A stretch of DNA of 64,000 nt. Source: a virus. The stretch covers positions 1 to 64,000 of the IMG/VR virus record IMGVR_UViG_3300037851_000192; one strand, given 5' to 3'. The position numbers and the translations under genes were made by a program. Each line of letters opens with the position of its first letter. Position 1 is the stretch's first letter. A model generated the notes under the pieces. The model saw only the letters and a list, made by a program, of their open reading frames with translations. It did no database searches and was not told the DNA's origin. Of the stretch, positions 1,912-50,600 are shown in pieces.

Positions 1912-2192
1912 AGGCGGACGAGTTCAACTTGGCGGACGGCTTCGTGCCGGCAGCGGACGCGGCGGAGGCGCTCGGGATCGACGTGACCGCGGTCTACAAG
2001 GGGATCGAGGCGGGGCGCATCCCGGGCAAGTACGTTCCGGGCCTCGGGCGTTACGGGCGTTGGCTCGTGGACGCGGTGGCGCTCCTCGCGAAGCTCGATC
2101 CGAGCACGGCCGTCCAGATCCGCGAACGGGTGCAAGGCCTCGCGGATCGCGTGACGCACGCGAAGCGGGGGCGAAATGTGGCTCGAGGTTGA
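1908..2192 (+). CDS. small helix-turn-helix DNA-binding protein (excisionase/MerR-like)
   Basis: ATGA overlap start; AAEALGIDVTAVYKGIEAGRIPG HTH-like segment. Confidence 0.45.
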   Translation: MKADEFNLADGFVPAADAAEALGIDVTAVYKGIEAGRIPGKYVPGLGRYGRWLVDAVALLAKLDPSTAVQIRERVQGLADRVTHAKRGRNVARG

Positions 2193-3597: not shown

Positions 3598-3600
3598 GAA

Positions 3601-3642
3601 TCGGACCACGCTTCGGGCCGTTTTCGCCGGCCTCGTGGTCGA
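3601..3642 (+). terminator. composite GC-rich hairpin just after the helicase stop (no U-tract)
   Basis: 3604-3610 pairs with 3634-3640; inner stem 3616-3620/3628-3632. Confidence 0.25.
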
Positions 3643-3655
3643 AAAGGAGGTGCTT

Positions 3656-3817
3656 GTGTTAGGATCGCGATCGCCCTTCGCGGGCAGGAATGAGCGCGCG
3701 CCGGTGCGCCGGACGGACTCGGAAGTTCCGAGCGTAACCTCCCTCGGAACATCGATCGGCCCGGTCGGCGGCGAAACGCCTCGCGCGTTCATTCCTGCCC
3801 GCGAGGCCGCACCATGA
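3656..3817 (+). CDS. small ORF (53 aa) translationally coupled to next gene
   Basis: GTG 3656 lies 5 nt after a strong AAGGAGG; stop overlaps ATG 3814 (ATGA). Also contains a 20-bp inverted repeat (see findings). Confidence 0.3.
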   Translation: MLGSRSPFAGRNERAPVRRTDSEVPSVTSLGTSIGPVGGETPRAFIPAREAAP

Positions 3818-30793: not shown

Positions 30794-30815
30794 CTTATAG
30801 CACGAACGATGCCAA
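30794..30815 (-). promoter_or_regulatory. bipartite promoter-like cassette copy M1
   Basis: TTGGCATCGTTCGTGCTATAAG, then 8 nt, then ATG 30785. Confidence 0.5.
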
Positions 30816-30817
30816 AC

Positions 30818-31075
30818 CTACCGCCACGCCCACGGGGCGACCCAACCGGCCGCGAGCCGGAGGGCGGGCACGAAGCGCCGGTTCCGGAGGCCGAGCCCGT
30901 CGGCTTGGATCAAGGTCGGGAGCACGGCGCCGGCGTCGAGGAGTTCGCCGATCGCGTCCTCGCGCTCGACGTCCGAAACCCCGCGCTCGAGGCACGCGGC
31001 CCGGACGTGGTCTTCGGTCTGCTCGCCGGAGCGGAGGATCGTCGCGATCGCCTTGGTTGCCTTGCTCGTCTTCAT
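30818..31075 (-). CDS. hypothetical protein (MKT...)
   Basis: ORF 30818..31075(-); cassette upstream. Confidence 0.55.
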   Translation of the reverse strand: MKTSKATKAIATILRSGEQTEDHVRAACLERGVSDVEREDAIGELLDAGAVLPTLIQADGLGLRNRRFVPALRLAAGWVAPWAWR

Positions 31076-31083
31076 GGTAGACT

Positions 31084-31105
31084 CTTATAGCACACGTCAT
31101 GCCAA
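31084..31105 (-). promoter_or_regulatory. bipartite promoter-like cassette copy M2
   Basis: TTGGCATGACGTGTGCTATAAG + 8 nt + ATG 31075. Its TGA is the stop codon of the upstream gene. Confidence 0.5.
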
Positions 31106-31402
31106 CCGAGCGGAGCGGGCGGCGAGCACGAGCGCGGCGAGCCGCTCCCGGTCCGGTCCGTGAAGGTTGATCCGCGCGACGCCGGCTTCCATGGTCGGGT
31201 AGTCGCGCGAGAACGTCGGGCGCGTGGTCTCGTAGCTTCGGATCCGATGGCGCCAAACCTCCGTGAGTAGAGCCCGAACCGTGCGCAACGGACGGCCGGT
31301 GATCGCGGCAAGCTCGGCCGCGGAATGGTCCCGCCCGTCGGCGAGGTAGGCTTCCGTGATCTCGGCTGCAAAGGTGGCGACTTGTTCCGTCGTGGTCTTC
31401 AT
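31097..31402 (-). CDS. hypothetical protein with HTH-like segment
   Basis: ATG 31402 (MKTTTEQV..., GGAG upstream); SAAELAAITGRPLRTVRALL. Confidence 0.5.
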   Translation of the reverse strand: MKTTTEQVATFAAEITEAYLADGRDHSAAELAAITGRPLRTVRALLTEVWRHRIRSYETTRPTFSRDYPTMEAGVARINLHGPDRERLAALVLAARSARLA

Positions 31403-31404
31403 GG

Positions 31405-31578
31405 TCAACTCCATGGGCCGAAGTGAACGACGCGGTCTTGCTGCTCGGCCGCCCAAGCGTTGGCTTGCTCGGGGCTCGCGAGCCCGTCGCGAACCATGCG
31501 GGCCGCTTTCGTGGCGATCTCCGCGTAGCGGCGTTCGGTGGCTTGCTCCTCGAGGCGTTGGAACTCTTGGCGCGTCAT
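31405..31578 (-). CDS. small hypothetical protein (57 aa, below ORF-track cutoff)
   Basis: Hand translation: MTRQEFQRLEEQATERRYAEIATKAARMVRDGLASPEQANAWAAEQQDRVVHFGPWS; GGGAG upstream. Confidence 0.4.
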   Translation of the reverse strand: MTRQEFQRLEEQATERRYAEIATKAARMVRDGLASPEQANAWAAEQQDRVVHFGPWS

Positions 31579-31582
31579 GGTC

Positions 31583-31804
31583 TTAGCACTCCCTCGCGAG
31601 CCACTTCTCGGCCGCCTTGAAGGCGCCGCGGAGCGTCGTGTAGGTCTTGCCTGAGAACGCGCGGAGCGTGCAACCGCTCGCGGTCGCGACGATGATCCAC
31701 TCGCCCGAGCAGGGCGAGACCGTCGCGGCGCGGTTGCCGCGCGCGAGCGTCGTGTTTCCGAAAGCGTCCGCCGTCCACTCGATCCCGTTGTTCGTCGTCT
31801 TCAT
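31583..31804 (-). CDS. hypothetical protein (MKT...)
   Basis: ORF 31583..31804(-); cassette upstream. Confidence 0.55.
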   Translation of the reverse strand: MKTTNNGIEWTADAFGNTTLARGNRAATVSPCSGEWIIVATASGCTLRAFSGKTYTTLRGAFKAAEKWLAREC

Positions 31805-31812
31805 GGTAGACT

Positions 31813-31834
31813 CTTATAGCACACGTCATGCCAA
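31813..31834 (-). promoter_or_regulatory. bipartite promoter-like cassette copy M3
   Basis: TTGGCATGACGTGTGCTATAAG + 8 nt + ATG 31804. Confidence 0.5.
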
Positions 31835-31835
31835 A

Positions 31836-32097
31836 CGGCCGGATCGTGCTAAGTGCCCGATCCCTCGAGTTCGACCGAGCCGCGCCCCTTGCGTCGAGGT
31901 ATGACAGCCGCGTCATACTGAACTGCCTCCGAACGGCACTTTCGGCGAAAACCGCAACGGGTTCGCGGCCTTGGATATATGGCAGCGAGTATGACATTCG
32001 TGTCATGGTAAACGGGCTCCCGGTCGCGTCGGCGGCGAATTGCGCTGGACTTCCGCGAGGTTGCCGCCGTCCTCGAGGTATGACATTCGTGTCATAC
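31836..32097. repeat. non-coding repeat block L1 with three ATGACA-N4-TGTCAT palindromes
   Basis: Palindromes at 31899-31918, 31989-32008 and 32078-32097. Direct repeat of block L2. GCTAAGTG box at 31848-31855. Confidence 0.8.
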
Positions 32098-32613
32098 TGC
32101 GCTGGCCGTGGCGTTACACTCGGCAAGGAGCGCGTCGGCTTCGCCACGGTCGAGCGCGGCTTCGGCAAGTTGGCGGGCGAGGCCGGTCTCGTCGTAGCAC
32201 TTGTGGCCCATATCGTCGTCGCCGCGGCCGAAGCTCCGCCAATAGCCGTCGCCGGCAATCCAGCAAGATTCGCCGAGGATCTCGACGCTCTCGCTGCGCG
32301 GGCGCGCCTTCAAGGCGACGAGCCGGCGCTCGATCGCGTCGGCGTAGGGGTAGACGATCTCGCGGTCATACTCCGCGTCACAGTAGCGGTTGCCGCCGTT
32401 CAGGATCTCCCCGTGCTCGTCGCGGTCGATCCGGGCGTGGCCCGCGACGATCTCCTTCACCTTGGAGATCGAAACGTAAGGGCTGCGCACCTTTACGGCG
32501 ATCGAGGAGCCGAGCGAGTAGAACTCACACCGGACCGAGACCAACCGGGGCTTGATCCCCGCTGCCTTCAACTGCGCCCGAATCTCCGCCGCGTGGTCTT
32601 TCGTGGTCTTCAT
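32092..32613 (-). CDS. hypothetical protein (N-terminus recalls LPD29-type polyvalent-protein domain; unverified)
   Basis: MKTTKDHAAEIRAQLKAAGIKPRLVSVRCEFYSLGSSIAVKV; cassette upstream. Confidence 0.55.
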   Translation of the reverse strand: MKTTKDHAAEIRAQLKAAGIKPRLVSVRCEFYSLGSSIAVKVRSPYVSISKVKEIVAGHARIDRDEHGEILNGGNRYCDAEYDREIVYPYADAIERRLVALKARPRSESVEILGESCWIAGDGYWRSFGRGDDDMGHKCYDETGLARQLAEAALDRGEADALLAECNATASAV

Positions 32614-32621
32614 GGTTTCCT

Positions 32622-32643
32622 CTTATAGCACGTATGATGCCAA
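32622..32643 (-). promoter_or_regulatory. bipartite promoter-like cassette copy M4
   Basis: TTGGCATCATACGTGCTATAAG + 8 nt + ATG 32613. Confidence 0.5.
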
Positions 32644-32652
32644 CCGCCGGGC

Positions 32653-32877
32653 CTACTCGGCCTCGAGCGCGCGAACGCGGATCCGCGTCGTGCCGAAGAA
32701 GACGCGCACGTCCTCGGCCGCCGCGCTCATGTAGTGGTGAGCGTTCGAGAGCGTCACGCGGACGCGGCTCTTGCCCACGGGCTCGACCGCGGACACAAGC
32801 CATTCCGTCCCGCAAGCCTCGACCGCCCAATCGCCGGCCGTCAACTCGCTCGCCTTCTTCGTCGTCGTGGTCTTCAT
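32653..32877 (-). CDS. hypothetical protein (MKT...)
   Basis: ATG 32877 in ORF 32653..32883(-). Confidence 0.5.
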   Translation of the reverse strand: MKTTTTKKASELTAGDWAVEACGTEWLVSAVEPVGKSRVRVTLSNAHHYMSAAAEDVRVFFGTTRIRVRALEAE

Positions 32878-32885
32878 GGTCAACT

Positions 32886-32907
32886 CTTATAGCACGGATG
32901 ATGCCAA
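32886..32907 (-). promoter_or_regulatory. bipartite promoter-like cassette copy M5
   Basis: TTGGCATCATCCGTGCTATAAG + 8 nt + ATG 32877. Confidence 0.5.
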
Positions 32908-32929
32908 CCGACCGACCGGGCCCCGCGGG

Positions 32930-33235
32930 CTAGAGGGAGAGGTAGAGCCCGGTCGTGCGCTCGAAGGTCTCGCGCATTTGCGCCGTGTCGAGGCCTTCGA
33001 CCTCGAGGACCGTCCGCACGTCGAAGCGGGCGAGCTTGTAGATCGTGACGTTGTAGAGGTCCGCGCCGCGGTCGTAGGTCACGGTCACGGCGTTCGCCTT
33101 GCGCGAGCCCTTGAACTTGAACGAGACGCGGCACGCTTCGTTGTCGTAGGTGAAGCCGTGGGCGCCAAGCATGGCCGAGAGCTTGCCGAAGCCGCCGAGT
33201 TGCTCGATCGTGGTTGCGTTCTGCTCGTTCATCAT
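32930..33235 (-). CDS. hypothetical protein (MMNEQ...)
   Basis: ATG 33235 in ORF 32930..33259(-). The longer start would lie inside the cassette. Confidence 0.55.
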   Translation of the reverse strand: MMNEQNATTIEQLGGFGKLSAMLGAHGFTYDNEACRVSFKFKGSRKANAVTVTYDRGADLYNVTIYKLARFDVRTVLEVEGLDTAQMRETFERTTGLYLSL

Positions 33236-33242
33236 GACCTCT

Positions 33243-33264
33243 TTTATAGCACGCATCATGCCAA
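33243..33264 (-). promoter_or_regulatory. bipartite promoter-like cassette copy M6
   Basis: TTGGCATGATGCGTGCTATAAA + 7 nt + ATG 33235. Confidence 0.5.
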
Positions 33265-33268
33265 CCGA

Positions 33269-33559
33269 TCACGCGACGCGGACGCCGATCCGGCGAGTGT
33301 CCACGATCCAAAGCTCGGCGTCCTCGAGCGTTTGCCAAACGGCGAAGCCGGCAGCGTTGAAGCCGGCGGCCGCGAAGGCGTTCGCGCGGACGAGGAAGAA
33401 GTCGCCGTCGCGGGCGACGACGCGGGAATTGTTGAACATTCCGAGCCAAGCGGCCTTGCCCTTCCGGCCTTGGGTCGCGGCGAAGGTCTCGGCGGCGACG
33501 ACGGCGGGGCGGGAGGCGACGAGGCGGGCGGGGACGGCGGCGAGGTTCTCGGTCTTCAT
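33269..33559 (-). CDS. hypothetical protein (MKT...)
   Basis: ATG 33559 in ORF 33269..33802(-); first gene of the leftward arm. Confidence 0.5.
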   Translation of the reverse strand: MKTENLAAVPARLVASRPAVVAAETFAATQGRKGKAAWLGMFNNSRVVARDGDFFLVRANAFAAAGFNAAGFAVWQTLEDAELWIVDTRRIGVRVA

Positions 33560-33566
33560 GCTTCGA

Positions 33567-33588
33567 GTTATAGCACGCGGCATGCCAA
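33567..33588 (-). promoter_or_regulatory. bipartite promoter-like cassette copy M7
   Basis: TTGGCATGCCGCGTGCTATAAC + 7 nt + ATG 33559. Confidence 0.5.
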
Positions 33589-33853
33589 CCGATCGGGCTG
33601 CGCTAAGTGTCCGATCTCTCGAGCGCTCCGGCCGCGGGCTCCTCGCGTCGAAGCATGACAGCCGTGTCATGCTGAACTGCCTCCGAACGGCCCTTTCGGC
33701 GAAAACCGCAACGTGTTCGCGAGGTTGGATATATGGCAGCAAGTATGACATTCGTGTCATAGCAAACGGGCTCTTGGGCCCTCCGCTCCGCGAAAAGTGC
33801 AAGCGGTTCCGCAGCTTACGCCGTTCGAGCGAGGTATGACATCCGTGTCATAC
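33589..33853. repeat. non-coding repeat block L2 with three ATGACA-N4-TGTCAT palindromes
   Basis: Palindromes at 33653-33672, 33743-33762 and 33834-33853; GCTAAGTG at 33602-33609. Confidence 0.8.
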
Positions 33854-34100
33854 CTGAACGCGGAGGCACGGCCGACGCTCGAGGGCTCCGAGCGCTCCGC
33901 CCGTTGACCCACGGTCAAGAATTGTCACCGGCTCGCAGCCGTAAGCTCGCGTTTCCTATAGCACGCACGCCATAAGCGGACGGCGCGCGCGGCCGGAGCG
34001 ATCGGCTAAGTGCGCGATTCTTGGAGCGTGTGCCGCGAATTGTCACACGCATGCTATAAGAGCTGCCGAAAATTGTCACGCCGGAGGGGTTGACCCACGG

Positions 34101-34122
34101 GCCCAAACCTCGAGGTTTGGGC
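34101..34122. promoter_or_regulatory. perfect 22-bp palindrome GCCCAAACCTCGAGGTTTGGGC, 20 bp upstream of cassette P1
   Basis: Self-complementary over all 22 positions; lies in the divergent control region. Confidence 0.6.
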
Positions 34123-34142
34123 ACTTGCGCGCGTTCGGATCT

Positions 34143-34164
34143 TTGGCATGGCGCGTGCTATAAC
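34143..34164 (+). promoter_or_regulatory. bipartite promoter-like cassette copy P1
   Basis: TTGGCATGGCGCGTGCTATAAC + 7 nt + ATG 34172. Confidence 0.5.
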
Positions 34165-34171
34165 TCCAAGC

Positions 34172-34504
34172 ATGAAGACGAACGAGACGCGCAAGGCTGG
34201 CAACGTGACCGTGACCCGTAGCCGTGTCCTCGGGACCGCCTGCTACGTCTACACCGCTTGGGAGCCTTCGAGCGCGACCGGGCACGGCACGGTCACGACG
34301 ATCGACGGCGCTTGGCACGGCGAGATCGGAAGCCGTCGGGCTCCCGAAGCGGCGCTCGCGCTCCCGGTCGGGCCGGCTCGCTGGGCGGCGCTCGACGCGG
34401 ACCGCGCGGCGCAATACGCCGAGGCGCACGCGGCGATCGTCGCGGCCTTCCCCGAGGCCGCGGAAGGCACGCGCGAGAACGGCCGGATCTCGGTTTGGTC
34501 GTGA
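34172..34504 (+). CDS. hypothetical protein (MKT...)
   Basis: ATG 34172 in ORF 34148..34504; first gene of the rightward arm. Confidence 0.55.
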   Translation: MKTNETRKAGNVTVTRSRVLGTACYVYTAWEPSSATGHGTVTTIDGAWHGEIGSRRAPEAALALPVGPARWAALDADRAAQYAEAHAAIVAAFPEAAEGTRENGRISVWS

Positions 34505-34562
34505 CCTCGAGAACCCCGGGCCGGCTCCGGTCGGCCCAAGCATAGCAAGGAGATCGCAACCC

Positions 34563-34922
34563 ATGAAGACGAGCAGCAACGCAACGCGCAAGGCGGAGAT
34601 CGTGGCAAGCCGTGGCGGATCGCGCGAGGTCCGGATCACGATCACGGACGGCGCGCCGAACGGCCCGCGGGCTAGCTCGCGCGCGCTCGACGCCGAGGCC
34701 TTCCGGCTCGCGGCCGAGGTCGAGCTTGCAACCCCGACGGTCGAGCGGTGGATCGTTCGTGTCGAGCGCGCCTTCGCGCGCTCCTCGGCCGTCGTGATCG
34801 AGCTTGCCAAGGGGACGGCGGACGAAGCCGCGCGGGCTCTGTCCGTGGCGTTTGCGGCGCTCGAGGTCGAGCTTTGCAGCGCGGCGCCGTTGCACGAGCG
34901 GACCGCGTCTCGGTTGGCATGA
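34563..34922 (+). CDS. hypothetical protein (MKT...)
   Basis: ATG 34563 preceded by AAGGAG; its stop TGA lies inside cassette P2. Confidence 0.5.
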   Translation: MKTSSNATRKAEIVASRGGSREVRITITDGAPNGPRASSRALDAEAFRLAAEVELATPTVERWIVRVERAFARSSAVVIELAKGTADEAARALSVAFAALEVELCSAAPLHERTASRLA

Positions 34923-34935
34923 CGTGTGCTATACA
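34914..34935 (+). promoter_or_regulatory. bipartite promoter-like cassette copy P2
   Basis: TTGGCATGACGTGTGCTATACA + 7 nt + ATG 34943. Confidence 0.5.
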
Positions 34936-34942
34936 AGAGGGC

Positions 34943-35548
34943 ATGATGAACGAGACGACGACGGCGTGGCGGTTGGTGGCGGTTCGGGACGTGCGGCCGG
35001 TCGACCTCGACACGGGCAAGCGGATCGACCTCCCCGCCGATATGCTTCCGGAGTGCTGCCGTTGCGGCCGGCGGCACGCCAAGGTCTACGAGGTCACGGA
35101 CGGCGCCCGCGTGCGGACGGTCGGATCGGGATGCGTCCGCGCGGCCTTCGACGGTTGGGAGCCGACGGCCGAGGAGCTTCGGACCGCGCGCAAGGTCGAG
35201 CGGAAGGCGCTCGAGGACGCCCGCCGCGCGTCGATCGCGGCGCGTGCGGCCGAGCTTCTTCCGGCCGCCGTGGCCGTTCTGGCAAGCGTTCCCGCGCCGG
35301 CGGTTCTTAGCACGCGGACGACGGATCCCTTCGGAAATGCGGTCGCCCCGATCGTTCAGTGGGGGAACGACTTCGCCCGCGTTTGGTGCCGCGACGGTCT
35401 CACGGCCGAACGCCGATCGACGCTCGAGGACGCGACGCGCGAGCGGGTGGCCCATCGGGTGGTCGGCGACGCTATGCCCGGCGCACGCTACGCGCTCCGC
35501 GTGCTCGTCGCGGCCGCGCTCGAGGCCTTGATCCGGGGGCGGTCGTGA
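34943..35548 (+). CDS. hypothetical protein (MMNET...), Cys cluster CCRCG
   Basis: ATG 34943 in ORF 34748..35548. Confidence 0.55.
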   Translation: MMNETTTAWRLVAVRDVRPVDLDTGKRIDLPADMLPECCRCGRRHAKVYEVTDGARVRTVGSGCVRAAFDGWEPTAEELRTARKVERKALEDARRASIAARAAELLPAAVAVLASVPAPAVLSTRTTDPFGNAVAPIVQWGNDFARVWCRDGLTAERRSTLEDATRERVAHRVVGDAMPGARYALRVLVAAALEALIRGRS

Positions 35549-35841
35549 GCCGGGGGCGGGACCTCGACGGCCGGGCGGGCTGCGTCCGGCTCGGGCGCTC
35601 GAGGCAAACCGGCCGGCTCGTCGGCGTCTACCGCTCGAGGGACGCGGGGTTGGACGAGGGCGAGCCCGGCGAGTTCTCGACGGCTTGGTCGGTCGTGTGC
35701 GAGGAGCACGGGGCGATCGTCGGGCTCGGGACGCGGAGGGACGCCGAGCTTGCCGCGGCCGACCCGCGCGGGTTCTGCGAGGACTGCCAAGCCGAAGCCC
35801 AACCTACACGGACGCATGACAGCCGTGTCATACTGAACTGA
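35545..35841 (+). CDS. hypothetical protein
   Basis: GTG 35545 (GTGA overlap); 3' end runs into repeat block R1. Confidence 0.45.
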   Translation: MSRGRDLDGRAGCVRLGRSRQTGRLVGVYRSRDAGLDEGEPGEFSTAWSVVCEEHGAIVGLGTRRDAELAAADPRGFCEDCQAEAQPTRTHDSRVILN

Positions 35842-35948
35842 GCAAAAGTGAATCAAGCCCGCGAGACCGTTGAAGAAAAGAGCTATGACATTCGTGTCAT
35901 AGAAGTGAAAGGTTTGCGTAGCGGCAGATCCGCGCACTTAGCGGATCG
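35803..35948. repeat. 146-bp repeat block R1 with two ATGACA-N4-TGTCAT palindromes
   Basis: Near-identical to 37210-37355. Palindromes at 35814-35833 and 35883-35902; CACTTAGC at 35935-35942. Confidence 0.85.
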
Positions 35949-36018
35949 GGGCTCCTCGAGGCGCACGGCCCGGGGCTCCTCGAGGCGCACGGCCCGGGGC
36001 TCCTCGAGGCGCACGGCT
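35947..36018. repeat. 3 x 24-bp tandem repeat CGGGGCTCCTCGAGGCGCACGGCC
   Basis: Units 35947-35970, 35971-35994 and 35995-36018 (last base differs), between block R1 and cassette P3. Confidence 0.85.
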
Positions 36019-36052
36019 TCGGCCGTTCGGGCACTTCGGCCGGTTGTGTTGT

Positions 36053-36074
36053 TTGGCATGGCGCGTGCTATAAC
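36053..36074 (+). promoter_or_regulatory. bipartite promoter-like cassette copy P3
   Basis: TTGGCATGGCGCGTGCTATAAC + 7 nt + ATG 36082. Confidence 0.5.
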
Positions 36075-36081
36075 TCCAAGC

Positions 36082-36468
36082 ATGAAGACGCCGACCGAAC
36101 TCCTTGCCCCCTACGCCGCCTTGACCCCGTGCGACCCGACCGAGGGCCCGACGTTCCGCGCCATCGCGCGCAAGCTCTCGAAGGGCGCCCGGCGCTTCGT
36201 CGGCGCCGTCTACTCCGCGCCCGTGACGCTCACGCGCAACCCCGAGCTTTGCCGATGCTTCCGCGAGCTTTCCGAGGCCGACCGCGCGCGCATGCTCGTT
36301 TGGCGGACCTCGAACACGCGAGGGCAGACCGTGATCAAGGCGGAGCACGAGGACGCGCTTCGCGAGTGCATTCGCGCCGGGCTCCTCGAGGTTGCCAAGC
36401 TCGGGGAAGGCGTGGGCGTCGCTCGCGCGACCGACCTCGGCCGCCGCGTCTACCTTCACGTCTACTAG
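36082..36468 (+). CDS. hypothetical protein (MKT...)
   Basis: ATG 36082 in ORF 35848..36468. The upstream part of that ORF covers repeats and is rejected. Confidence 0.55.
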   Translation: MKTPTELLAPYAALTPCDPTEGPTFRAIARKLSKGARRFVGAVYSAPVTLTRNPELCRCFRELSEADRARMLVWRTSNTRGQTVIKAEHEDALRECIRAGLLEVAKLGEGVGVARATDLGRRVYLHVY

Positions 36469-36484
36469 GCCGACGGCCGCCCGG

Positions 36485-36506
36485 CTGGCATGCCGCGTGC
36501 TATAAG
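36485..36506 (+). promoter_or_regulatory. bipartite promoter-like cassette copy P4
   Basis: CTGGCATGCCGCGTGCTATAAG + 8 nt + ATG 36515. Confidence 0.5.
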
Positions 36507-36514
36507 AGGGAAGC

Positions 36515-36697
36515 ATGAAGACGCCGAAGCCGAGCAAGTGGAACCGGGCGATCGTGGTCTCGGTTCCCGGGCACAACGAAGACGATCCCGCAACCTACCA
36601 CGTGATCTCGCGCGACCGCGCCGAGCGTTACGCGCTCGACACGCAGACCTTCGCGACGGCGAAGGAAGCGGCCCGCGCGCTCCGGGGGGCAGCATGA
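36515..36697 (+). CDS. hypothetical protein (MKT...)
   Basis: ORF 36515..36697. Confidence 0.5.
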   Translation: MKTPKPSKWNRAIVVSVPGHNEDDPATYHVISRDRAERYALDTQTFATAKEAARALRGAA

Positions 36698-36900
36698 AGC
36701 CGAGGACGACGACGGCTAAGGGCGGGACGATCTACCGGCCGTGCCCGTGCGGCGAGACCGCGCACGATCTCATGGTCTGCCCGGCCGCGCTCGTGCCCGA
36801 GGCTCCGGCCGTGGCCGTGAACGAGTGGGGCAACGTGTGGATCTACAAGTGTCGAAATTGCCGAGCGCGGATCTACCGCACGACGCGGGGGGCAGCATGA
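36694..36900 (+). CDS. hypothetical Cys-rich small protein
   Basis: ATGA overlap start 36694; CPCGE...CP...CRNC. Confidence 0.5.
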   Translation: MKPRTTTAKGGTIYRPCPCGETAHDLMVCPAALVPEAPAVAVNEWGNVWIYKCRNCRARIYRTTRGAA

Positions 36901-37226
36901 CCGGCCGCCCGGTCTCGAGGGCTTCCGCGCGCGCGCTCGTGCGCGCCGGCGTCGAGGTCCGGTTCGGCCGACGCGGGCTCGAGGCGCCGGCGTGGGCCGC
37001 GATCGTCGCCTCCGCCTACTCCGATCCCCTTGCCGCGGTCGAGCCTTTGCGCGGGCTGCTAGCACTCCGCCACGGGCCCGAGCTTGCGGCCGCGGCGTTC
37101 GGGCTCCGGGCCCCGATCCCGGGGGCGGCCGCGCGCGTCTTCGCGCTGCTCGGTCCGGCCGCGCGGGTTGCCGTCGAGCCCGGCCGCGGCGACCAACCGA
37201 CGCGGCTTGCCTACACGGACGCATGA
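36897..37226 (+). CDS. hypothetical protein
   Basis: ATGA overlap start 36897; 3' end runs into repeat block R2. Confidence 0.45.
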   Translation: MTGRPVSRASARALVRAGVEVRFGRRGLEAPAWAAIVASAYSDPLAAVEPLRGLLALRHGPELAAAAFGLRAPIPGAAARVFALLGPAARVAVEPGRGDQPTRLAYTDA

Positions 37227-37355
37227 CAGCCGTGTCATACTGAACTCGGCAAAAGTGAATCAAGCGCGCGGAACCGTTGAAGAAACGAGCTATGACATTC
37301 GTGTCATAGAAGTGAAAGGTTTGCGTAGCAGCGGATCCGCGCACTTAGCGGATCG
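37210..37355. repeat. 146-bp repeat block R2 with two ATGACA-N4-TGTCAT palindromes
   Basis: Palindromes at 37221-37240 and 37290-37309; CACTTAGC at 37342-37349. Confidence 0.85.
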
Positions 37356-37433
37356 CCGCCCGGCCGGCGGGCTCGAGGGCTCCGGCCGTTGGCGGCGCGA
37401 ACGAAACTACGCGGGCTTGCGCTCCGCGACCGT

Positions 37434-37455
37434 TTGGCATGGCGCGTGCTATAAC
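37434..37455 (+). promoter_or_regulatory. bipartite promoter-like cassette copy P5
   Basis: TTGGCATGGCGCGTGCTATAAC + 7 nt + ATG 37463. Confidence 0.5.
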
Positions 37456-37462
37456 TCCAACC

Positions 37463-37750
37463 ATGAAGACGACGACGATCACGAAGGAGCAGGGCAAGCG
37501 GTTGGCGGCGGCTTGGGAGATCGTGAACCCCGCGGTTCCGGGCTACCAGGATTGGAAATCCCCGATCGCTTGGGGGATCTCGACGCGGCACTTGGACGAG
37601 CACTTGGCGGGGCGCGCGGGCGTCACGCTCGAAGACGTCCTAGACGCGATCGAGTTCTACACGGCGACCGCGGCGACCGTGACCGAGATCGGCGACATGA
37701 CTTGGATCAAGGCTCCCGGCTACCGCAACGGCCCCGCGGGCGACCACTGA
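37463..37750 (+). CDS. hypothetical protein (MKT...)
   Basis: ATG 37463 in ORF 37439..37750. Confidence 0.55.
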   Translation: MKTTTITKEQGKRLAAAWEIVNPAVPGYQDWKSPIAWGISTRHLDEHLAGRAGVTLEDVLDAIEFYTATAATVTEIGDMTWIKAPGYRNGPAGDH

Positions 37751-37761
37751 CCGACGGGGCT

Positions 37762-37790
37762 CGAGGAGCCCGGAGCGGCCGGGCTCCTCG
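37762..37790 (+). terminator. 12-bp-stem hairpin abutting cassette P6
   Basis: CGAGGAGCCCGG-agcgg-CCGGGCTCCTCG; no U-tract; ends 1 nt before TTGGCAT. Confidence 0.4.
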
Positions 37791-37791
37791 G

Positions 37792-37813
37792 TTGGCATGG
37801 TGCGTGCTATACT
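37792..37813 (+). promoter_or_regulatory. bipartite promoter-like cassette copy P6
   Basis: TTGGCATGGTGCGTGCTATACT + 8 nt + ATG 37822. Confidence 0.5.
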
Positions 37814-37821
37814 TCGAGGGC

Positions 37822-38100
37822 ATGACGAGCGAAAGGACGGACAGCATGAAGACGACGCGGACCGGAGCCCGGACCCTGTTTACCCTCTACTGCGCGCGCA
37901 CGGGCGAGAGTAGCGCGATCTGCGTGTGCCACGCGCACGCCAAGGAAATGCCGGCGGTCGATGGGGATCGCGTCCGCGCGGACGCGGCGGACGACGACTG
38001 CTCGTGCGACTTCTGCGAAGCGGCCGCGACCTTCGAGGCGCGGGCGGCCGCGAAGGCGGAGCGCGTGTGGTCGGCCGCTTGCCATGCTTGGGTCCGTTGA
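37822..38100 (+). CDS. hypothetical Cys-rich protein
   Basis: ATG 37822 (MTSERTDSMKTT...) in ORF 37084..38100; CVCHAH...CSCDFC. Confidence 0.5.
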   Translation: MTSERTDSMKTTRTGARTLFTLYCARTGESSAICVCHAHAKEMPAVDGDRVRADAADDDCSCDFCEAAATFEARAAAKAERVWSAACHAWVR

Positions 38101-38111
38101 CCCGACGGGCT

Positions 38112-38140
38112 CGAGGAGCCCGGCTGCTCCGGGCTCCTCG
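38112..38140 (+). terminator. 12-bp-stem hairpin abutting cassette P7
   Basis: CGAGGAGCCCGG-ctgct-CCGGGCTCCTCG; same arms as 37762-37790 with a different loop. Confidence 0.4.
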
Positions 38141-38141
38141 G

Positions 38142-38163
38142 TTGGCATGGCGTGTGCTATAAC
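38142..38163 (+). promoter_or_regulatory. bipartite promoter-like cassette copy P7 (no ORF; ATG position reads ATC)
   Basis: TTGGCATGGCGTGTGCTATAAC + 7 nt + ATC 38171. Confidence 0.5.
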
Positions 38164-38172
38164 TTCAAGCAT

Positions 38173-38259
38173 CGCAGGCACCGACGAAAAGCCCCCGGGC
38201 GGGGGGCCCGCAAGGGCGATCGGTGGCTCGGCCGGGTTCGACTCCCGGGCTTGCGACCA
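38173..38259 (+). ncRNA. tRNA-like RNA element (acceptor stem + T-arm + encoded CCA; no canonical D or anticodon arm)
   Basis: 7-bp acceptor stem 38173-38179/38249-38255 (one G-U). T-arm CCGGG-TTCGACT-CCCGG at 38232-38248. A-CCA at 38256-38259. Internal GC hairpins at 38192-38205 and 38206-38217 (GCAA loop). Confidence 0.5.
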
Positions 38260-38312
38260 GACGAACGAAGGATCACGGGCTCGACGCCCAAGACGGGATC
38301 CGAGGTGAGACC

Positions 38313-38729
38313 ATGGCAGACGAAGCGCGAGAGATCGACACGAGCACCGACCGCGATTGGCTCCGGCCGTCGGATTGGTTTCGGGACGTCCGAACGCGGG
38401 CGGGGTTGACGCAGCAGGAATTTGCGGCGGCGAACGTGGTCGCCCAATCGGTCGTGACCGTTTGGGAGCGGCCGAGCGATGCGACGCCGCGGCCCGAGAC
38501 GCTCGCACGCGTGGCGGCGGTGCTCGGCGTCGAGCCCCCGATCATGCTTTGCCGCGCCGGGGGCGTCATGATCCGGCGGGCGCAACGCGAGCCGGAGATC
38601 GACCGCGAGAAGCTCGCGGCGAGCAACCCGAAGGTGGCGAAGCGGTTCCGGCGCGGACCGCTCGCGGAACGGAGGAACGCGCCAAGGGAGGACCATGCGC
38701 CCGAGGAAGAAGGCGACGCGGTGGCATGA
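38313..38729 (+). CDS. XRE-like helix-turn-helix protein
   Basis: ATG 38313 (GAGGTGAG upstream); RTRAGLTQQEFAAANVVAQSVVTVWERP. Confidence 0.6.
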   Translation: MADEAREIDTSTDRDWLRPSDWFRDVRTRAGLTQQEFAAANVVAQSVVTVWERPSDATPRPETLARVAAVLGVEPPIMLCRAGGVMIRRAQREPEIDREKLAASNPKVAKRFRRGPLAERRNAPREDHAPEEEGDAVA

Positions 38730-40207: not shown

Positions 40208-40532
40208 CGTCGCGTGGTATCTGATAGCGGGCGCGATCGTGCTCGGCGCGGCGCTCGTGACCGTCGGCTTGTCGAAGAACGCGGCGCGATGGGAGGCGGA
40301 GCTTAGGTTGCCCGCGTGGTTTAGCGTCGCGGGCGAGGTTGTCGCGATCGTGATCGCAACGGCCGGCGGGGCGGCCGCGGGCTTCTGGACGTGGCATTGG
40401 GGGCTCGGCCTCTTGTCCGGTCTCGTCGGCTCGCTCTCGGCGTCGATCGTCGTGCGGTTCGTGGCCGCGTGGATCGAGCGAAGGCGGGGCGAGAACGACG
40501 ACGAGATCAAGAAGGCGGATCGACCGGGATAG
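40161..40532 (+). CDS. integral membrane protein (about 3 TM segments)
   Basis: WYLIAGAIVLGAALVTVGL, VAGEVVAIVIATAGGAAAGFW, LGLLSGLVGSLSASIVVRFV. Confidence 0.5.
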   Translation: MNPPTPVQHTAPVPNDVAWYLIAGAIVLGAALVTVGLSKNAARWEAELRLPAWFSVAGEVVAIVIATAGGAAAGFWTWHWGLGLLSGLVGSLSASIVVRFVAAWIERRRGENDDEIKKADRPG

Positions 40533-41826
40533 CTCCGGCGCGGCGCTCCGCCTTGCGGCCCGTGAGTTCTTCCCAACGGCGGACCGAGACGTCGCACCAC
40601 TTGGGTTCGACGTCGATCCCGATGCACCGGCGGCCGGTCTTCTCGCACGCGATCACGGTTGTCCCCGAGCCGAGGAACGGATCGAAGACAAGCTCGCCGG
40701 CGTCGCTCGAGTTCTCGATCAATTCGGCGAACAAGACGACCGGCTTCGCCGCGTTGTGCTTGCGCTCGTGCCCGCTCACGCGCGGATAGCGGACGAGGTT
40801 TAGCTTGTGGACCTGCCGTTGCCCTACGCGCGACGAGCGCTTCATGATCCGCTCCTTCGGAAGCGCCGCGAAGAACGCCACAAACTCGTGCGTGTTAGCG
40901 TAGGACGAGCCGAGCCCGCACGATAGCTTGTCCCAAACGATGCAGTTCTTAGGCGTGAGCCCGCCGCGTCGCGCGCCATCCCAAAGCGCGGCGTAGCTCC
41001 GCCAATCGCAGCACACGTAAACGTGTGCGAACATGCGAACGTGTTCGCCGCAAATGCGCGCGAGCTTCTCGAAGAAGGGGCGAACCATCTTGTCGTCTGC
41101 AATATCGGCAGCGATCCCCGTGCTCGACCCGTAGATCGCGAACGGCGGATCGGTCAGAACGAGATCGACTAGCGCGTCCTCGAGGAGCGCGCGGCGCTGC
41201 TCCTCGTGAAAGGTGTCGACGCACGCGATCTTGTGATCTCCGAGGATCCAAAGGTCGCCCGGCTTCGTGATCGGATCGGCTAGCGAAACGAACCGCTCGG
41301 GCTCCTCGTCTTCGTCGGTTGCCTCGGGCGGCGCCTCGTCCGTCGTGATCTCGAGTTCGCCGGCGCTCGTCGCGGCCGCGATCAAGGAGTCGATCTCGCC
41401 GCTCTCGAAGCCGAAGTCCACGGGAAGGATCTCGCCTTCCGCCGCAAGGTCCGCGAGCACGCGGCCGAGGTCGGCGTCGCTCCGCCACGTTCCGCGCTTT
41501 TGGTCTAGTTTGATCGTGAGCGCCTTGGCTTCGCGCTCGGTCAAGCCGTGCAAGAGCACCATGGGCCCTTCGTGAAGGCCGACGTCGCGCGCGGCGATCC
41601 ATCGGTGCTCGCCGTCAATGATGAGGTTGCGAGGCGTGGCGATCTCGTCGGTCGCCCATACGAGAAGCGCTTGTGATACGAGCCAACCGTCCTCGCGGAA
41701 GCCGTGGCGGATCGACGCCATGACGTGTTCGGGGACGTGGTTTGGGTTCCAGCTATTCGGCCGCACTTGGTCGAGCGGAAGGATCTCGACCTTGCCGCGC
41801 AGCCTGGCGGCGTTCTGCTCGTGCAC
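40507..41826 (-). CDS. ParB-like domain fused to DNA (N6-adenine/N4-cytosine) methyltransferase
   Basis: GTG 41826 with GAGG 8 nt upstream; ILPLDQVRPNSWNPN...IIDGEHRWIAA (ParB); LTDPPF (motif IV); FDPFLGSGTT (motif I). Confidence 0.75.
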   Translation of the reverse strand: MHEQNAARLRGKVEILPLDQVRPNSWNPNHVPEHVMASIRHGFREDGWLVSQALLVWATDEIATPRNLIIDGEHRWIAARDVGLHEGPMVLLHGLTEREAKALTIKLDQKRGTWRSDADLGRVLADLAAEGEILPVDFGFESGEIDSLIAAATSAGELEITTDEAPPEATDEDEEPERFVSLADPITKPGDLWILGDHKIACVDTFHEEQRRALLEDALVDLVLTDPPFAIYGSSTGIAADIADDKMVRPFFEKLARICGEHVRMFAHVYVCCDWRSYAALWDGARRGGLTPKNCIVWDKLSCGLGSSYANTHEFVAFFAALPKERIMKRSSRVGQRQVHKLNLVRYPRVSGHERKHNAAKPVVLFAELIENSSDAGELVFDPFLGSGTTVIACEKTGRRCIGIDVEPKWCDVSVRRWEELTGRKAERRAGAIPVDPPS

Positions 41827-41977
41827 GAATGACCTCGCGAAGAAGTTCGACAACGATCGTGTTGCGGGACAGATACCCGCCGCGAACGCGCATCGTGGCG
41901 CGCTTGATCTCGTCCACGTCGGCAAGCAACCGCTTGTCGAGCCGGACGAACAAGACGACGTGTTCGCGCGCCATCAT
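41753..41977 (-). CDS. ribbon-helix-helix protein
   Basis: ATG 41977 in ORF 41753..42148(-); VVLFVRLDKRLLADVDEIKRA...SRNTIVVELLREVI; 3' 74 nt overlap the methyltransferase start. Confidence 0.55.
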   Translation of the reverse strand: MMAREHVVLFVRLDKRLLADVDEIKRATMRVRGGYLSRNTIVVELLREVIRARAERRQAARQGRDPSARPSAAE

Positions 41978-47362: not shown

Positions 47363-47695
47363 ATGAGCGAACCGGGCGAAGTGATCGCGCGGTGCACGCT
47401 CACGGCCGCGAGCTATCAGAAGTGCCTTGCGACGCTCGAACGCGGGCAAGTCAAGCGCGTGATCCAACGTGGCCCGCTCGTCGGGTATTACCTTTGCTGC
47501 CCGTCGTGCGGTTGGGCTAGCGCCTACCTTCACGAGAAGTGCGGATACGTCGAGGCCGAGCCCTACGTCGGGACGTCATGGCCGCGGCGGCTCGTCGGGA
47601 TCACGAATCCCCCGACGTGCCACAAGTGCCGATCGCGTTTGTCGATCGAGAGCGGCGTCGAGGGCTTCGACCTCGTGGCGCGGGGGCAGCCGTGA
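47363..47695 (+). CDS. zinc-ribbon protein
   Basis: CCPSCGW...CHKCRS. Confidence 0.5.
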   Translation: MSEPGEVIARCTLTAASYQKCLATLERGQVKRVIQRGPLVGYYLCCPSCGWASAYLHEKCGYVEAEPYVGTSWPRRLVGITNPPTCHKCRSRLSIESGVEGFDLVARGQP

Positions 47696-50600
47696 TCGGG
47701 CTCGTCGCCATCCGAAGGGGCCGCTACGCGGCGGACGAGATTCTCGCCAAGGTCTTCGGCCTTCCCGTGCGGAAGGCGCGACGAGTCAACCCGAACAAGC
47801 CGAAGGGCTTTGACGCCTTCGTGGTCTCGCTGCTCGGGGATCTTGTCGAGGAAGCCGAGCCGATCGAACGCGAGGCGATCAAGACGTGGCTCCGCGATAT
47901 GGATCGCAACTGGCCGTCCATGACGAAGGACCAACGGAACGCGGCGATCGACCGCGCCGCGCGGGAATGGCTCGACACGACGCGACGGATCCCGGTCCAT
48001 CAATGGCCAACCTACGCCGCGCACGGCAAGACGATCGTCGAGCAAACGAAGGCGGCCGCGGTCCTCGAACACGGGATCCGGATCGTGCCGTCGTTCGACC
48101 TCGTGGACGCGCAAGCCGTGAAGTCGTCGGCGGAAATGCAGGCGTTCTACACGCGCAACTCCTACGGGTTGCGCGAAGTGCAAATGAGCGAGCAAGCGCG
48201 GAAGATCGTGTCCGCGGGGATCGAGGGCGGGCTTGACCGCTACGAGATCGGGAAAGACCTCGCGGCGATGGCGGCGACGGGCCCGGTTTCGTGGCAGCGA
48301 TCGATGGGTTACTTTCAGATGATCGCGTCCGTCTTCACGGCACGCGCGCGGAGCTACTCGAACCTTTCGGCCTACCAGCAAGCCGAGATCGAGCGCTTCC
48401 GATTCGAGGCCGTCCTAGACGAAGTGACGACCGACGTTTGCCGCATGATGCACGGCAAGACGTTCACGACTTCGACCGCGCTCGAGGGCTACGCGAAGGT
48501 GGCGGCGAGCGAAGATCCCGAGGACGTGAAGACGATCCAACCGTGGGTCCAAACCGGGAAGAACGAGCAGGGCGACCAGATCCTCTACTACAAGAACGCC
48601 GAGGGCTCGCGCGTGAAGGTCGCGAGCGTCAACGAATCGGCGGTCGGCAAGAAGGACACGATCGGGAGCTATGCGGGCATGAGCCCGCGGCAACTCGAGC
48701 GCGCGGGGATCTCCGCTCCGCCGTTGCACGGGCATTGTCGATCCGTGATCGTTCCCGCCAGCATGCAAGGCGGCGTTGGTGCCGTTCCGCGCGGGCCCGC
48801 TCCGGCAGCGGTTCCCGTGGCGCCTTCCGCGCCCGTGGCTCCGGCGGCCCCGCCACCCGCTCCGGCTCCCGTCGTTCCGACGGCTCCGGCCCCCGCGCCC
48901 GTTGTACCGCCTCCGGCCGCGGCCCCCGCTCCGCCTCCGGTCCTTCGGACCGATCAAGATCGCGCGTGGCACGCGCTCGACCGGCTCGGCCGGCTCCCGC
49001 GCGCCGACCCGAACGATCGCGAGTTCGACGCGATCGTCAACCCGATCCCGAGCGCGAGGCCTGACAGTTACGCGCTTCCGTGGACCGACAAGACCGAGCG
49101 GCAGGTTGGGCGCTTGTCCGAACGCTTCCGGCAACTCGAGGCCTCGGGCGGGGCCCCGCCGGCGCAGCAAGTGAAGATCAACCAACTCCGATCTATGTCG
49201 CCGGACTTGCTTCGCGCGAACGTCATGACGGGGATCGGCGAGGAGTTCACGGGCGCGCCGGGCGAGATCCCGCTCCTCGTTCGGCATAGGGGGCAGCTCT
49301 ACATTTACGAGAACGCCGAGCGCGTCGCGGCCGCGACGCTCGGCGGGCGATCAACCATCGCGGCGCACGTTATCGACCTCGACGCCGACGAACCGTGGCC
49401 GAAGCCCGCGCCGACCCCGGCCGCGGCTCCCCCGTTGGTTCGACAACCGGCGCCGATTGCACCGCGGCCCGTCGCTCCGCCTCCGCCTCCGCCTCCGGCG
49501 CCGATCATTCCGGCTCGCGCGCGGACGTTCCGCGACGACGAGGCGCGCGGATCCTTCGCGCTCGAACAGCTAAGCGGCCTCCCCGAGTTCGACTCCGGCG
49601 AACCGTCGGATCTTCGGTTCGTGCAGAATCCGATCCCGAGCTTCACGCGCGAGGTGACGGGCTACTCGAACCCGCCATGGTCGGCCGAGAACCAAGCCCG
49701 GCTTACAAAGTTCGAGGAACGGCTAGGCGTGCTCCGGAAGGAGGGGCGCGCACCGCTCCCGCGCGCCTTGCGGATCGGCGAACTCCAATCAATGTCGCCG
49801 GACTTGCTTCCGAAGAACATCGCGCAAGGCGTCGTCGAGGAGTTCTACGGCGTGCCGGGCGATACCCCCGTGGTCGTTCGCACGGGCGGCAAGCTCTACG
49901 TTTACACGAACGTCGAGCGCGTCGCGGCCGCGAAGCTCGGCGGCCGATCGACCGTCTCGGCGCACGTTATCGACCTCGACGCGCGGAAGCCGTGGCGCGC
50001 TCCGCCGAAGAAGAAGAAGCCGGAGCCCGCGCCCGCGCCCGCGCCCGGCGAGGAGCCGAAGCCGAAGAAGATCCCGGTCTCCTATGTTTCATCCGAGGAG
50101 TTCGCGCGCAAGCACACGAGCGCCTACGCTTCGGCCTTCACGAAGAAGGAGTTCGCGGCCGCCGCGCGCAAGGTCTTCCCTTCGGACAAGATCCCGACCG
50201 TCGAGTCGCTCGAGAAGGTATGGGGCAGCGAAGCGGCCGAGCACTCGATCAAGATTTCGAGCGTGCGCGCTTACGACGAGGACGGCGTCGCGAAAGTGTG
50301 GCTAAGCGGCGACATTATCGGACCCAAGGGCAACTCGATCGGAAGGATCACGCGCACGTTCATTCGATACCCGAAGGACCGACGGCACCCGAACGGGTTG
50401 CTTGAAGTGCATCACGACTACTTCAAGATCGAGGACGCCGACGAGCAGGGGAAGAAGACCGGCGAGAGCATGCTCCGGCAATCGATCCAAACCTACGAGG
50501 AGCTTGGCGCGCACAAGCTCACGGTCGATGCCGCGTGGGTCGGCCGCTACACTTGGGCCACCTTCGGTTACAACTGGACCGAGAACTATGGGCGGAACAC

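Follow-up and report, generated by a model that had tools for sequence, protein, structure and literature searches.

Only a few systems are known in which small RNAs mimic tRNA (tmRNA, Y RNAs, mascRNA, viral 3′ ends), and each of these revealed a new use of tRNA recognition. Phage T4 encodes in its tRNA cluster two small stable RNAs, species 1 and 2 (RNA C and RNA D), which are matured by RNase P and given CCA and whose function is unknown; we know of no cellular homologues of them. Phage PhiTE carries pseudo-ToxI, a phage copy of a small host RNA, ToxI being a repeat-derived antitoxin encoded beside its toxin. The termini of the YrlA RNA form the Ro/Rsr-binding stem, its acceptor-like stem is closed, and the yrlA locus of Salmonella is sigma-54-controlled. 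YrlA is presented as a bacterial Y RNA-like non-coding RNA, also phage-borne, that mimics tRNA (PMC4201824). The Myxococcus small RNA Pxr is expressed from a sigma-54 promoter and processed by the tRNA 3′ exonuclease RNase D (PMC5684412, PMC10217877). Here we describe an element of about 88 nt at positions 38172–38259, plus strand, of a 64,000-nt stretch of viral DNA (positions 1 to 64,000 of IMG/VR record IMGVR_UViG_3300037851_000192; the window). It leads to a new structured RNA family, absent from Rfam 15, of a known kind, that of tRNA-like non-coding RNAs; literature searches found no description of such an RNA. That the window element belongs to this family and has its structure is practically certain.

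Judged from sequence comparison, the element is a conserved, structured and autonomous RNA gene, in which a tRNA-type acceptor/T-arm minihelix is joined to a non-tRNA lower body, and the family is common to Polyangia-type myxobacteria and several unrelated large phages. The parts of the element in the window are as follows.

38172–38179, plus strand: acceptor-like stem, 5′ strand (C38173–C38179, plus U38172 able to pair with A38256)
38180–38186, plus strand: inner helix P2, 5′ strand (ACCGACG), directly abutting the acceptor strand with zero linker
38187–38191, plus strand: single-stranded AAAAG, conserved
38192–38205, plus strand: hairpin 1, 5-bp stem, tetraloop GGGC
38206–38217, plus strand: hairpin 2, short stem with a GCAA loop in the window, where the stem is extendable to 4 bp
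38217–38224, plus strand: inner helix P2, 3′ strand, pairing with 38180–38186, A38219 bulged
38225–38231, plus strand: junction of 7 nt between P2 and T-arm, at the variable-loop position, unpaired in the consensus
38232–38248, plus strand: T-arm, 5-bp stem, TTCGACT loop
38249–38259, plus strand: acceptor 3′ strand and tail (38249–38255 stem; A38256; C38257–C38258 conserved; A38259 not conserved)

In the acceptor-like stem, CGCAGGC (38173–38179) and GCTTGCG (38249–38255) pair at 7/7 positions with a single G-U at 38177/38251. The T-arm reads CCGGG-TTCGACT-CCCGG, and G53, T54, T55, C56, R57, A58 and C61 are all present. The 7-bp acceptor stem is contiguous with the 5-bp T-stem and the T-loop has the form TTCRANY, as in tRNA. 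A38256 takes the discriminator position and is followed by CCA at 38257–38259. A D-arm and an anticodon arm with a 7-nt loop are absent from the element; its hairpin loops have 4–6 nt and none is of the U33 type. An earlier note made from the sequence alone had described this acceptor pairing, the T-arm, the A and CCA and the missing arms, together with an upstream promoter cassette followed by ATC in place of ATG, and all were found at the same positions. Its 4-bp inner helix and two hairpins are also present as described, and in the family consensus the helix is longer, growing to A38180-T38224 and C38185-G38218/G38186-C38217.

Like the tRNA-like domain of tmRNA and the tag-less tmRNA of jakobid mitochondria, the element has an acceptor formed by its ends, a canonical T-arm and no anticodon arm. 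As in tmRNA, the junction gives rise to a helix in place of the D and anticodon arms, and both kinds of RNA are found in bacteria and phages. Unlike tmRNA, the element is only ~88 nt long and lacks G3:U70, a tag open reading frame (ORF) and pseudoknots; ARAGORN and the Rfam tmRNA models do not match it, and its inner two-hairpin body has no counterpart in tmRNA.

As at the Salmonella yrlA locus, sigma-54 consensus sites precede some bacterial copies of the element. Its termini, unlike those of YrlA, form an acceptor stem ending in ACC. A T-arm plus a D-loop-like partner is common to both. Rfam yielded no Y RNA or YrlA match, either in nine member loci (E ≤ 1) or around the window element (E ≤ 10), and neither rsr nor rtcB was seen next to the copies examined. 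With species 1 and 2 of T4 the element shares that it is phage-encoded and that one copy, in a 235-kb phage contig, likewise lies in a tRNA cluster; unlike them the new family has chromosomal members. The mascRNA of MALAT1 and the 3′ tRNA-like structures of plant viruses are also tRNA-shaped modules within longer transcripts, read by RNase P, RNase Z and CCA-adding enzyme, but these are eukaryotic or of RNA viruses, their lower body has another topology, and their Rfam scores at the element are far under threshold. In the case of pseudo-ToxI a phage carries a small host RNA that presumably acts in trans on a host protein, as may be the case here, but no toxin gene is consistently linked to the new family. 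Pxr is a myxobacterial small RNA as well; it differs in having three stem-loops, a terminator hairpin with U-tail (from primer sequences, PMC5684412) and no T-arm. Homology to Pxr was rejected, because by the published primers its 3′ end is a terminator hairpin; no Rfam family was found at the member loci scanned.

Taken by itself, the element is weak evidence. ARAGORN found 0 tRNA/tmRNA genes in the window. Rfam 15 gave nothing at gathering thresholds over the element, the best permissive matches having E of ~1 or worse, with sub-threshold scores of 15.5 bits for tRNA-Sec (threshold 47), 15.7 for mascRNA (42.5) and 13.1 for Tymo_tRNA-like (40). These two checks, both among those named in the earlier note, yielded no tRNA and no family at this place. 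GGTTCGANTCC, a T-loop-like 11-mer, was not enriched within the window at ≤1 mismatch. BLAST searches with the region and with the element in GenBank phages, and with one bacterial copy in plasmids, returned no homologues; what matched was limited to T-arm words also present in tRNA-Leu genes of mycobacteriophages. The comparative data, described below, place the element far beyond chance.

The breadth of the family was sampled by exact patterns, which fixed the T-loop and part of the 5′ region. The exact 21-mer GGTTCGACTCCCGGGCTTGCG, run against one genome per species, gave five loci (L001–L005), all in Myxococcales, Polyangiaceae or ‘Deltaproteobacteria’ metagenome-assembled genomes, and each of them has a complete counterpart of the phage element, with the match forming its 3′ end. 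The shared layout is (U/C)CGCA(G/A)GC-ACCGnC-AAAAG-hairpin-hairpin-CGGU-junction-T-arm-GCUUGCG-(A/G)CC. ARAGORN called no tRNA or tmRNA in L001–L005, and when nine member loci were scanned permissively with Rfam (E ≤ 1), no family covered the element in any of them. A gapped pattern, which also imposed GCACCGnCnAnAAG, was run on metagenome contigs, and 12 of its 27 matches were true members; the other 15 failed when scored with the covariance model and were dropped.

Among viral contigs, the first IMG/VR scans (exact 3′ 30-mer, XRE protein, first gapped pattern) gave no matches, and two further scans revealed copies in jumbo-phage contigs of 235 kb (L043), 350 kb (L044, sequence same as L043) and 309 kb (L060). 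Members L001–L005, L043 and L060 came from 3′-only patterns. Contigs encoding relatives of the terminase gave L033, the closest phage relative (87% terminase identity), which has the identical arrangement of cassette and element. L042, obtained with a relaxed T-loop pattern, was a false match; one later IMG/VR scan gave 25 loci, of which two were L043 and L044 again, and 22 of the 23 new ones were non-members by model score; and a weak match in L036 was dismissed as a junction of two coding genes. In total 20 distinct members were obtained, 13 of them bacterial (Myxococcales/Polyangiaceae genomes and bacterial-type contigs) and the rest in phages or short contigs. Three members (L014, L017, L023) lie in short contigs of unknown origin, which were counted as presumed mobile or phage solely from small ORFs without database matches.

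RNAalifold on 17 sequences gave five helices: an 8-bp outer stem, the 7-bp P2, the 5-bp hairpin 1, the short hairpin 2 and the 5-bp T-stem. A model-guided alignment of the 20 distinct sequences has standard pairs in 97.4% of cells and compensatory change at 16 of its 27 pairs. None of 500 column shuffles of this alignment reached any of five measures, and sliding the partners by 1–3 columns lowered pairing to 36–48%. Compensatory change was found at six of eight pairs of the outer stem (columns 3–11 with 86–93 of alignment A5), two pairs of P2, all five pairs of hairpin 1, one of the two consensus pairs of hairpin 2 and two pairs of the T-stem, where 100% of cells are paired. C1:G72 does not vary among the 20 members. 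L060, the most divergent of them, has a wholly different yet complementary acceptor (CUCCCAC/GUGGGGG). Covariation thus supports acceptor, T, inner and hairpin helices alike; its lack at the acceptor pairing would, by the earlier note, have counted as a refutation.

A second covariance model was built from the 13 bacterial-context copies only, to avoid circularity. It found 38170–38261 with 99.3 bits and E = 3.5e-16 over model positions 1–92 of 92, and this was its sole match in the 64 kb. The proposal that a tRNA-like RNA, not an ORF, stands behind the promoter cassette finds support in this comparative evidence.

Two unpaired parts are also conserved. The GG of the hairpin-1 loop is invariant in 20/20 members, including those from 3′-only patterns; it is a candidate analogue of the D-loop G18-G19 and could dock on the T-loop. 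AAAAG (38187–38191) is kept in L001–L005, L043 and L060, part of it having been imposed by the pattern elsewhere. The invariance of the T-loop is partly ascertainment, because the search patterns required the loop sequence. A pairing of the hairpin-1 loop GG with the 3′ CC was also considered and rejected as sterically unlikely, the two sites lying at opposite ends of the fold; both are near-invariant and so offer no covariation.

The comparison of the window with L033 separates the element from its surroundings. The element is identical at 87/87 positions and the cassette at 21/22, the XRE gene downstream has 82.5% identity, and the upstream gene is barely alignable. The two sequences agree through 38258 and first part at 38259, where L033 has G instead of the A of CCA. 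At the rate of the XRE gene, zero changes in 87 nt would have a chance of ~5e-8, and the element is under purifying selection in the phage. In L033 the spacer 38260–38312 is replaced by other sequence with an 87-aa ORF between the element and the HTH gene. Because of this extra ORF directly downstream, the element is not tied to the start of the XRE gene; the 87/87 identity against 82.5% in the XRE gene, with a differing downstream gene, argues for an autonomous RNA gene rather than an XRE leader or an attachment-site (att) relic.

The neighbours of the bacterial copies are mutually unrelated: a GT2 glycosyltransferase, Usp with an NtrC-type regulator, TetR, PFOR and AbiEi-like/PIN genes, with KptA/TfoX farther off. 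Several bacterial copies face a convergent gene, and at L001, L002, L004/L013 and L025 there is downstream a convergent gene or more than 1 kb without co-directional ORF. Because the neighbours are not conserved, a link with the XRE gene or with any protein partner was rejected. Downstream of the L005 copy (487–4452) lies a defence-island-like run of an AbiEi-like regulator, a DUF4143 AAA ATPase, an RNase T-like exonuclease and a WYL/WCX regulator, with a PIN-domain gene on the other side of the element; no such run was seen at other copies.

The L043 copy lies within a run of tRNA genes. Several tRNAs of 80–85 nt in L043:1000–4300 best match the tRNA-Sec model, and T-arm-like stubs occur at ~2110–2215. 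At 3461–3551 there is a class-II-like tRNA missed by ARAGORN, with an 8-bp acceptor, an apparent UGA anticodon and encoded CCA. An ORF at ~2846–3425 looks AlkB-like by eye, and an inverted repeat of 25 nt (~2328–2352 and ~2583–2607) encloses ~230 nt right after a tRNA-Trp gene.

The conserved 3′ end of the family is A-C-C, kept even in L060. Nine members end in ACCC, four in ACCG (L016, L032, L033, L043) and three in ACCA (window, L017, L060), and UCCA, GCCC, GCUA, ACUA and ACAA occur once each. With tails this varied, CCA is not a family feature: the encoded CCA of the earlier note stands at 38257–38259 of the window, but it is not conserved and reads CCG in the closest phage relative. Four of seven phage or presumed-mobile copies encode CCA; of the 13 bacterial copies, most of which end in CCC, none does (Fisher p = 0.007, or 0.044 when the count is limited to confirmed phages). 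Beside the L043 element, which has CCG, lie tRNA genes with encoded CCA. A occupies position 73 in 16–17 of 20 members, and U occupies position -1 in 13. Pair 3:70 is C:G in 19/20 and G:C in 1/20, so the G3:U70 of tmRNA does not occur, and the G-U wobble at 5:68 is replaced elsewhere by A-U, G-C or C-G.

Around the element in the window, the features that bear on its transcription are as follows.

38113–38139, plus strand: terminator-like hairpin, 11-bp stem and 5-nt loop, closing the upstream gene (stop 38100), directly 5′ of P7
38142–38163, plus strand: promoter cassette P7, with GG-N10-GC like the sigma-54 -24/-12 and TGcTATAAC like an extended -10
38167–38171, plus strand: predicted transcription start zone, 1–5 nt 5′ of the outer stem, from the spacing of the -12 GC or the -10 hexamer
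38260–38312, plus strand: spacer, with the Shine-Dalgarno sequence GAGGTGA at 38303–38309
38313–38729, plus strand: gene of an XRE/HTH_3 regulator of 138 aa (Pfam HTH_3 4e-07; PHROG repressor families)

By direct reading of 37900–38700, P7 is intact (TTGGCATGGCGTGTGCTATAAC) and ATC stands at 38171–38173, where the 13 remaining cassettes carry ATG. A fuzzy search gave 14 cassettes of the form TGGCAT-N5-GTGCTATAA in 30795–38163, arranged divergently (minus strand 30795–33587, plus strand 34144–38162). In 13 of them an ATG follows 7–9 nt later, mostly as ATGAAGAC (MKT...), and only the copy at 38143 precedes CATCGCAGGC. As a sequence match, the sigma-54 form TGGCAY-N5-KTGCW is present as TGGCAT-GGCGT-GTGCT at 38143–38158 and is kept in all 14 cassettes. 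P7 is a putative promoter, which may be read as a sigma-54 site (-12 GC at 38156–38157) or as an extended -10 (TATAAC at 38158–38163); either reading would start transcription 1–5 nt before the stem. Both would also give leaderless or near-leaderless mRNAs from the cassettes, and a sigma-54-type early promoter set would be unusual for a phage. The hairpin at 38113–38139 was not called in the terminator scan, which requires a T-run. A near-identical GC-rich hairpin, gaggagcccgg...ccgggctcctcgg, stands just before the cassette at 37793 and again before that at 38143 (37763–37792, 38113–38139), and the unit of hairpin and cassette therefore looks duplicated. No terminator or sigma-70-like promoter was found between the element and the XRE gene (38260–38312). 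The remark that this gene has no other obvious promoter holds, as no further promoter-like site was found, and the gene is probably transcribed together with the element from P7.

Seven bacterial copies, of the CGCAGGC subtype, have in common an upstream motif AAACTTTTCC-N12-13-(C)GTGCT, in which the intact GTGCT sits 13 nt from the stem, the same distance as the GTGCT of the phage cassette. TGGCACG-N4-TTGC, facing the element, lies 40–66 nt upstream in L005, L015 and L032, and GGGCACG-N4-TTGC in L003. Sigma-54-type sites thus accompany four of five bacterial copies of the CGCAAGC subtype (L003:1495–1584; L005:4612–4701, minus strand; L015:2794–2883; L032:283–372). Because these sites are 40–66 nt upstream, these copies would carry a 5′ leader in need of removal. 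Two promoter classes may mark two paralogous subtypes, CGCAGGC and CGCAAGC. In L060 (8203–8232, minus strand) AAAAACTTTCC lies only 10 nt upstream of the element, against ~40 nt in many bacterial copies, and for this reason it may not be a -35 element.

We favour, with slightly better than even confidence, that the element is an autonomous, phage-borne RNA acting in trans as a host-derived mimic of the tRNA top half. In bacteria, RNase P recognises the stacked T-arm and acceptor, favours U at -1 and base-pairs with the 3′ RCC, and the CCA-adding enzyme and EF-Tu recognise the same minihelix. In the proposed course the early promoter cassette would start transcription within a few bases of the acceptor 5′ end, and the RNA would fold into a 7-bp acceptor (with a possible eighth pair -1:73) stacked on the T-arm, the D and anticodon arms being replaced by a 7-bp helix ending in two hairpins. 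Host tRNA 3′-end enzymes would then release it from the transcript of the XRE operon, and its ACC(N) end would be trimmed and made CCA by the CCA-adding enzyme; copies with longer leaders might be matured by RNase P. By mimicry, the free RNA would compete in trans with the tRNA minihelix or with the cell's own form of this RNA, occupying a host factor that reads the acceptor, T-arm and CCA end and needs no anticodon. The phage would thereby supply or override a host RNA that bacteria place behind a strict sigma-54 consensus or another recurring upstream motif.

Several observations weigh against this explanation. The minimum free energy of -44.7 kcal/mol is no better than that of shuffles (z = -0.70). 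A same-strand ORF begins 5–55 nt downstream in the window, L033, L014, L017, L023 and L032, which would also suit a cis role. Neither the window nor its flanks revealed a tRNA-related enzyme, and no gene was found to accompany the bacterial copies. The breadth of the family and the invariance of the fixed positions are biased, since the search patterns imposed them. Phage relatives at 60–68% terminase identity (L034–L039) have no element within 10 kb of the terminase gene; they therefore added no covariation, and the element appears dispensable for the phage lineage. The ends, processing and stability of the RNA are moreover predictions from sequence features.

The fold might instead be a 5′ module that works in cis on the operon, mainly to have the XRE mRNA processed or stabilised (RNase P/Z-type cleavage or protection), and whose released RNA has no function of its own. 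Mixed tRNA/mRNA operons (tufB) are known in bacteria, as are tRNA-like processing signals (MALAT1/mascRNA), and here the P7 transcript would open with the element and meet no terminator on its way into the XRE gene, to which the close downstream ORFs just listed may be added. However, the downstream gene differs even between sister phages, several bacterial copies have a convergent gene or more than 1 kb without co-directional ORF, and the L043 copy lies in a tRNA cluster; a plain cleavage signal also needs no conserved inner hairpins, invariant loop GG or AAAAG. We consider such a module unlikely. The earlier note had left two options, a free tRNA mimic and a structured leader of the XRE gene; the first is favoured, because the bacterial downstream genes vary, that of L033 differs and the L043 copy sits among tRNA genes, and the second has lost ground.

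The RNA could also be a chargeable adaptor, completed with CCA and aminoacylated, which serves on the ribosome like the tag-less tmRNA of jakobid mitochondria or in a tRNA-dependent transferase reaction, the phage carrying it as phages carry tRNAs or tmRNA. The conserved A-C-C, the invariant C1:G72, the prevalent A73, the canonical T-arm, the copy in a phage tRNA cluster and the excess of encoded CCA in phage and presumed-mobile copies agree with this. But the only well-known anticodon-independent identity, that of alanine as in tmRNA, is absent, because there is no G3:U70 and the wobble sits at 5:68, where it is replaced. Neither a tag reading frame nor a tmRNA call by ARAGORN was obtained, the L043 element ends in CCG beside CCA-encoding tRNA genes, and no SmpB-like or synthetase-like gene is nearby; an adaptor is improbable on these grounds.

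tRNA and tmRNA genes are classic integration targets, and the element might be an attP site or integration relic, the 3′ part of a host tRNA-like gene kept through integration with the remainder hitchhiking. At least 24 nt at its 3′ end (GGTTCGACTCCCGGGCTTGCGACC) are identical to several bacterial copies, and the end of L004/L013, GCGACCCAA, recurs 9 nt downstream: L004 ~1530–1560 (minus strand), equal to L013 ~5893–5923, reads GGGCTTGCGACCCAA and then, 9 nt on, GGGCTCGCGACCCAA, possibly a scar of integration or excision. Against a relic, the similarity spans the whole element with compensatory changes in every helix and no core boundary. The earlier note had taken identity to a host tRNA that stops at a crossover core as the sign of such a relic, and the matches are instead whole-element homologues that are not tRNAs. 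No integrase was found in the scanned window ORFs (Pfam, PHROGs), among the genes called ~10 kb to each side, or beside the bacterial copies examined; the phage encodes a DNA polymerase, a DnaB-like helicase, a primase and SbcCD of its own; the promoter is fused precisely to the 5′ end of the element, which is 100% conserved between phages. An att origin is thus very doubtful. A functionless chance resemblance in GC-rich intergenic DNA, with which the folding z of -0.7, the lack of ARAGORN and Rfam matches and the unenriched T-loop-like 11-mers would agree, is refuted by the 20 covarying homologues, the independent-model E value of 3.5e-16 and the 87/87 identity between phages, and its probability is close to nil.

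The window has 65–73% G+C and is part of a 99.5-kb contig with contractile-tail genes downstream (myovirus); the phage is apparently large and virulent. Its genes include terminase, portal, a ParB-methyltransferase fusion, a DEAD-type helicase, DnaB-like helicase, primase, family A DNA polymerase, SbcCD and an exonuclease. In L034 (1187–2017) and L035 (6352–9010), genes for a Tet/JBP-like dioxygenase and a glycosyltransferase adjoin the terminase, which suggests DNA hypermodification; the ParB-N6/N4 methyltransferase fusion occupies their position in the window (40507–41925, minus strand). The region 47539–50889 encodes a head-associated protein of 1116 aa with a weak MuF-like region and a weak VapB-like match, and its L035 counterpart has a NUDIX match.

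Returning to the preferred reading, that of a host-derived tRNA top-half mimic acting in trans, the phages seem to borrow a host tRNA look-alike. The RNA is compact, with ~88 nt, and is easily synthesised, and the cassettes around it may be early promoters of sigma-54 type that drive leaderless genes of a myxobacterial phage. We might further speculate, tentatively and as something rather less than probable, that the family is an anticodon-less ‘half-tRNA’ regulatory RNA of Polyangia-type myxobacteria, which acts via its CCA-type end and elbow on translation or tRNA surveillance, was captured independently by at least three phage lineages and is evolving in its phage copies toward a ready-made CCA. 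Such a half-tRNA could be charged for a non-decoding use, or act as a sponge that titrates a tRNA 3′-end-modifying enzyme or toxin, and its capture would serve the phage as a counter-measure or take-over device. Chromosomal members with upstream signals of their own, together with members in a 99.5-kb myovirus and in phage contigs of 235–350 kb, point to a host function worth copying.

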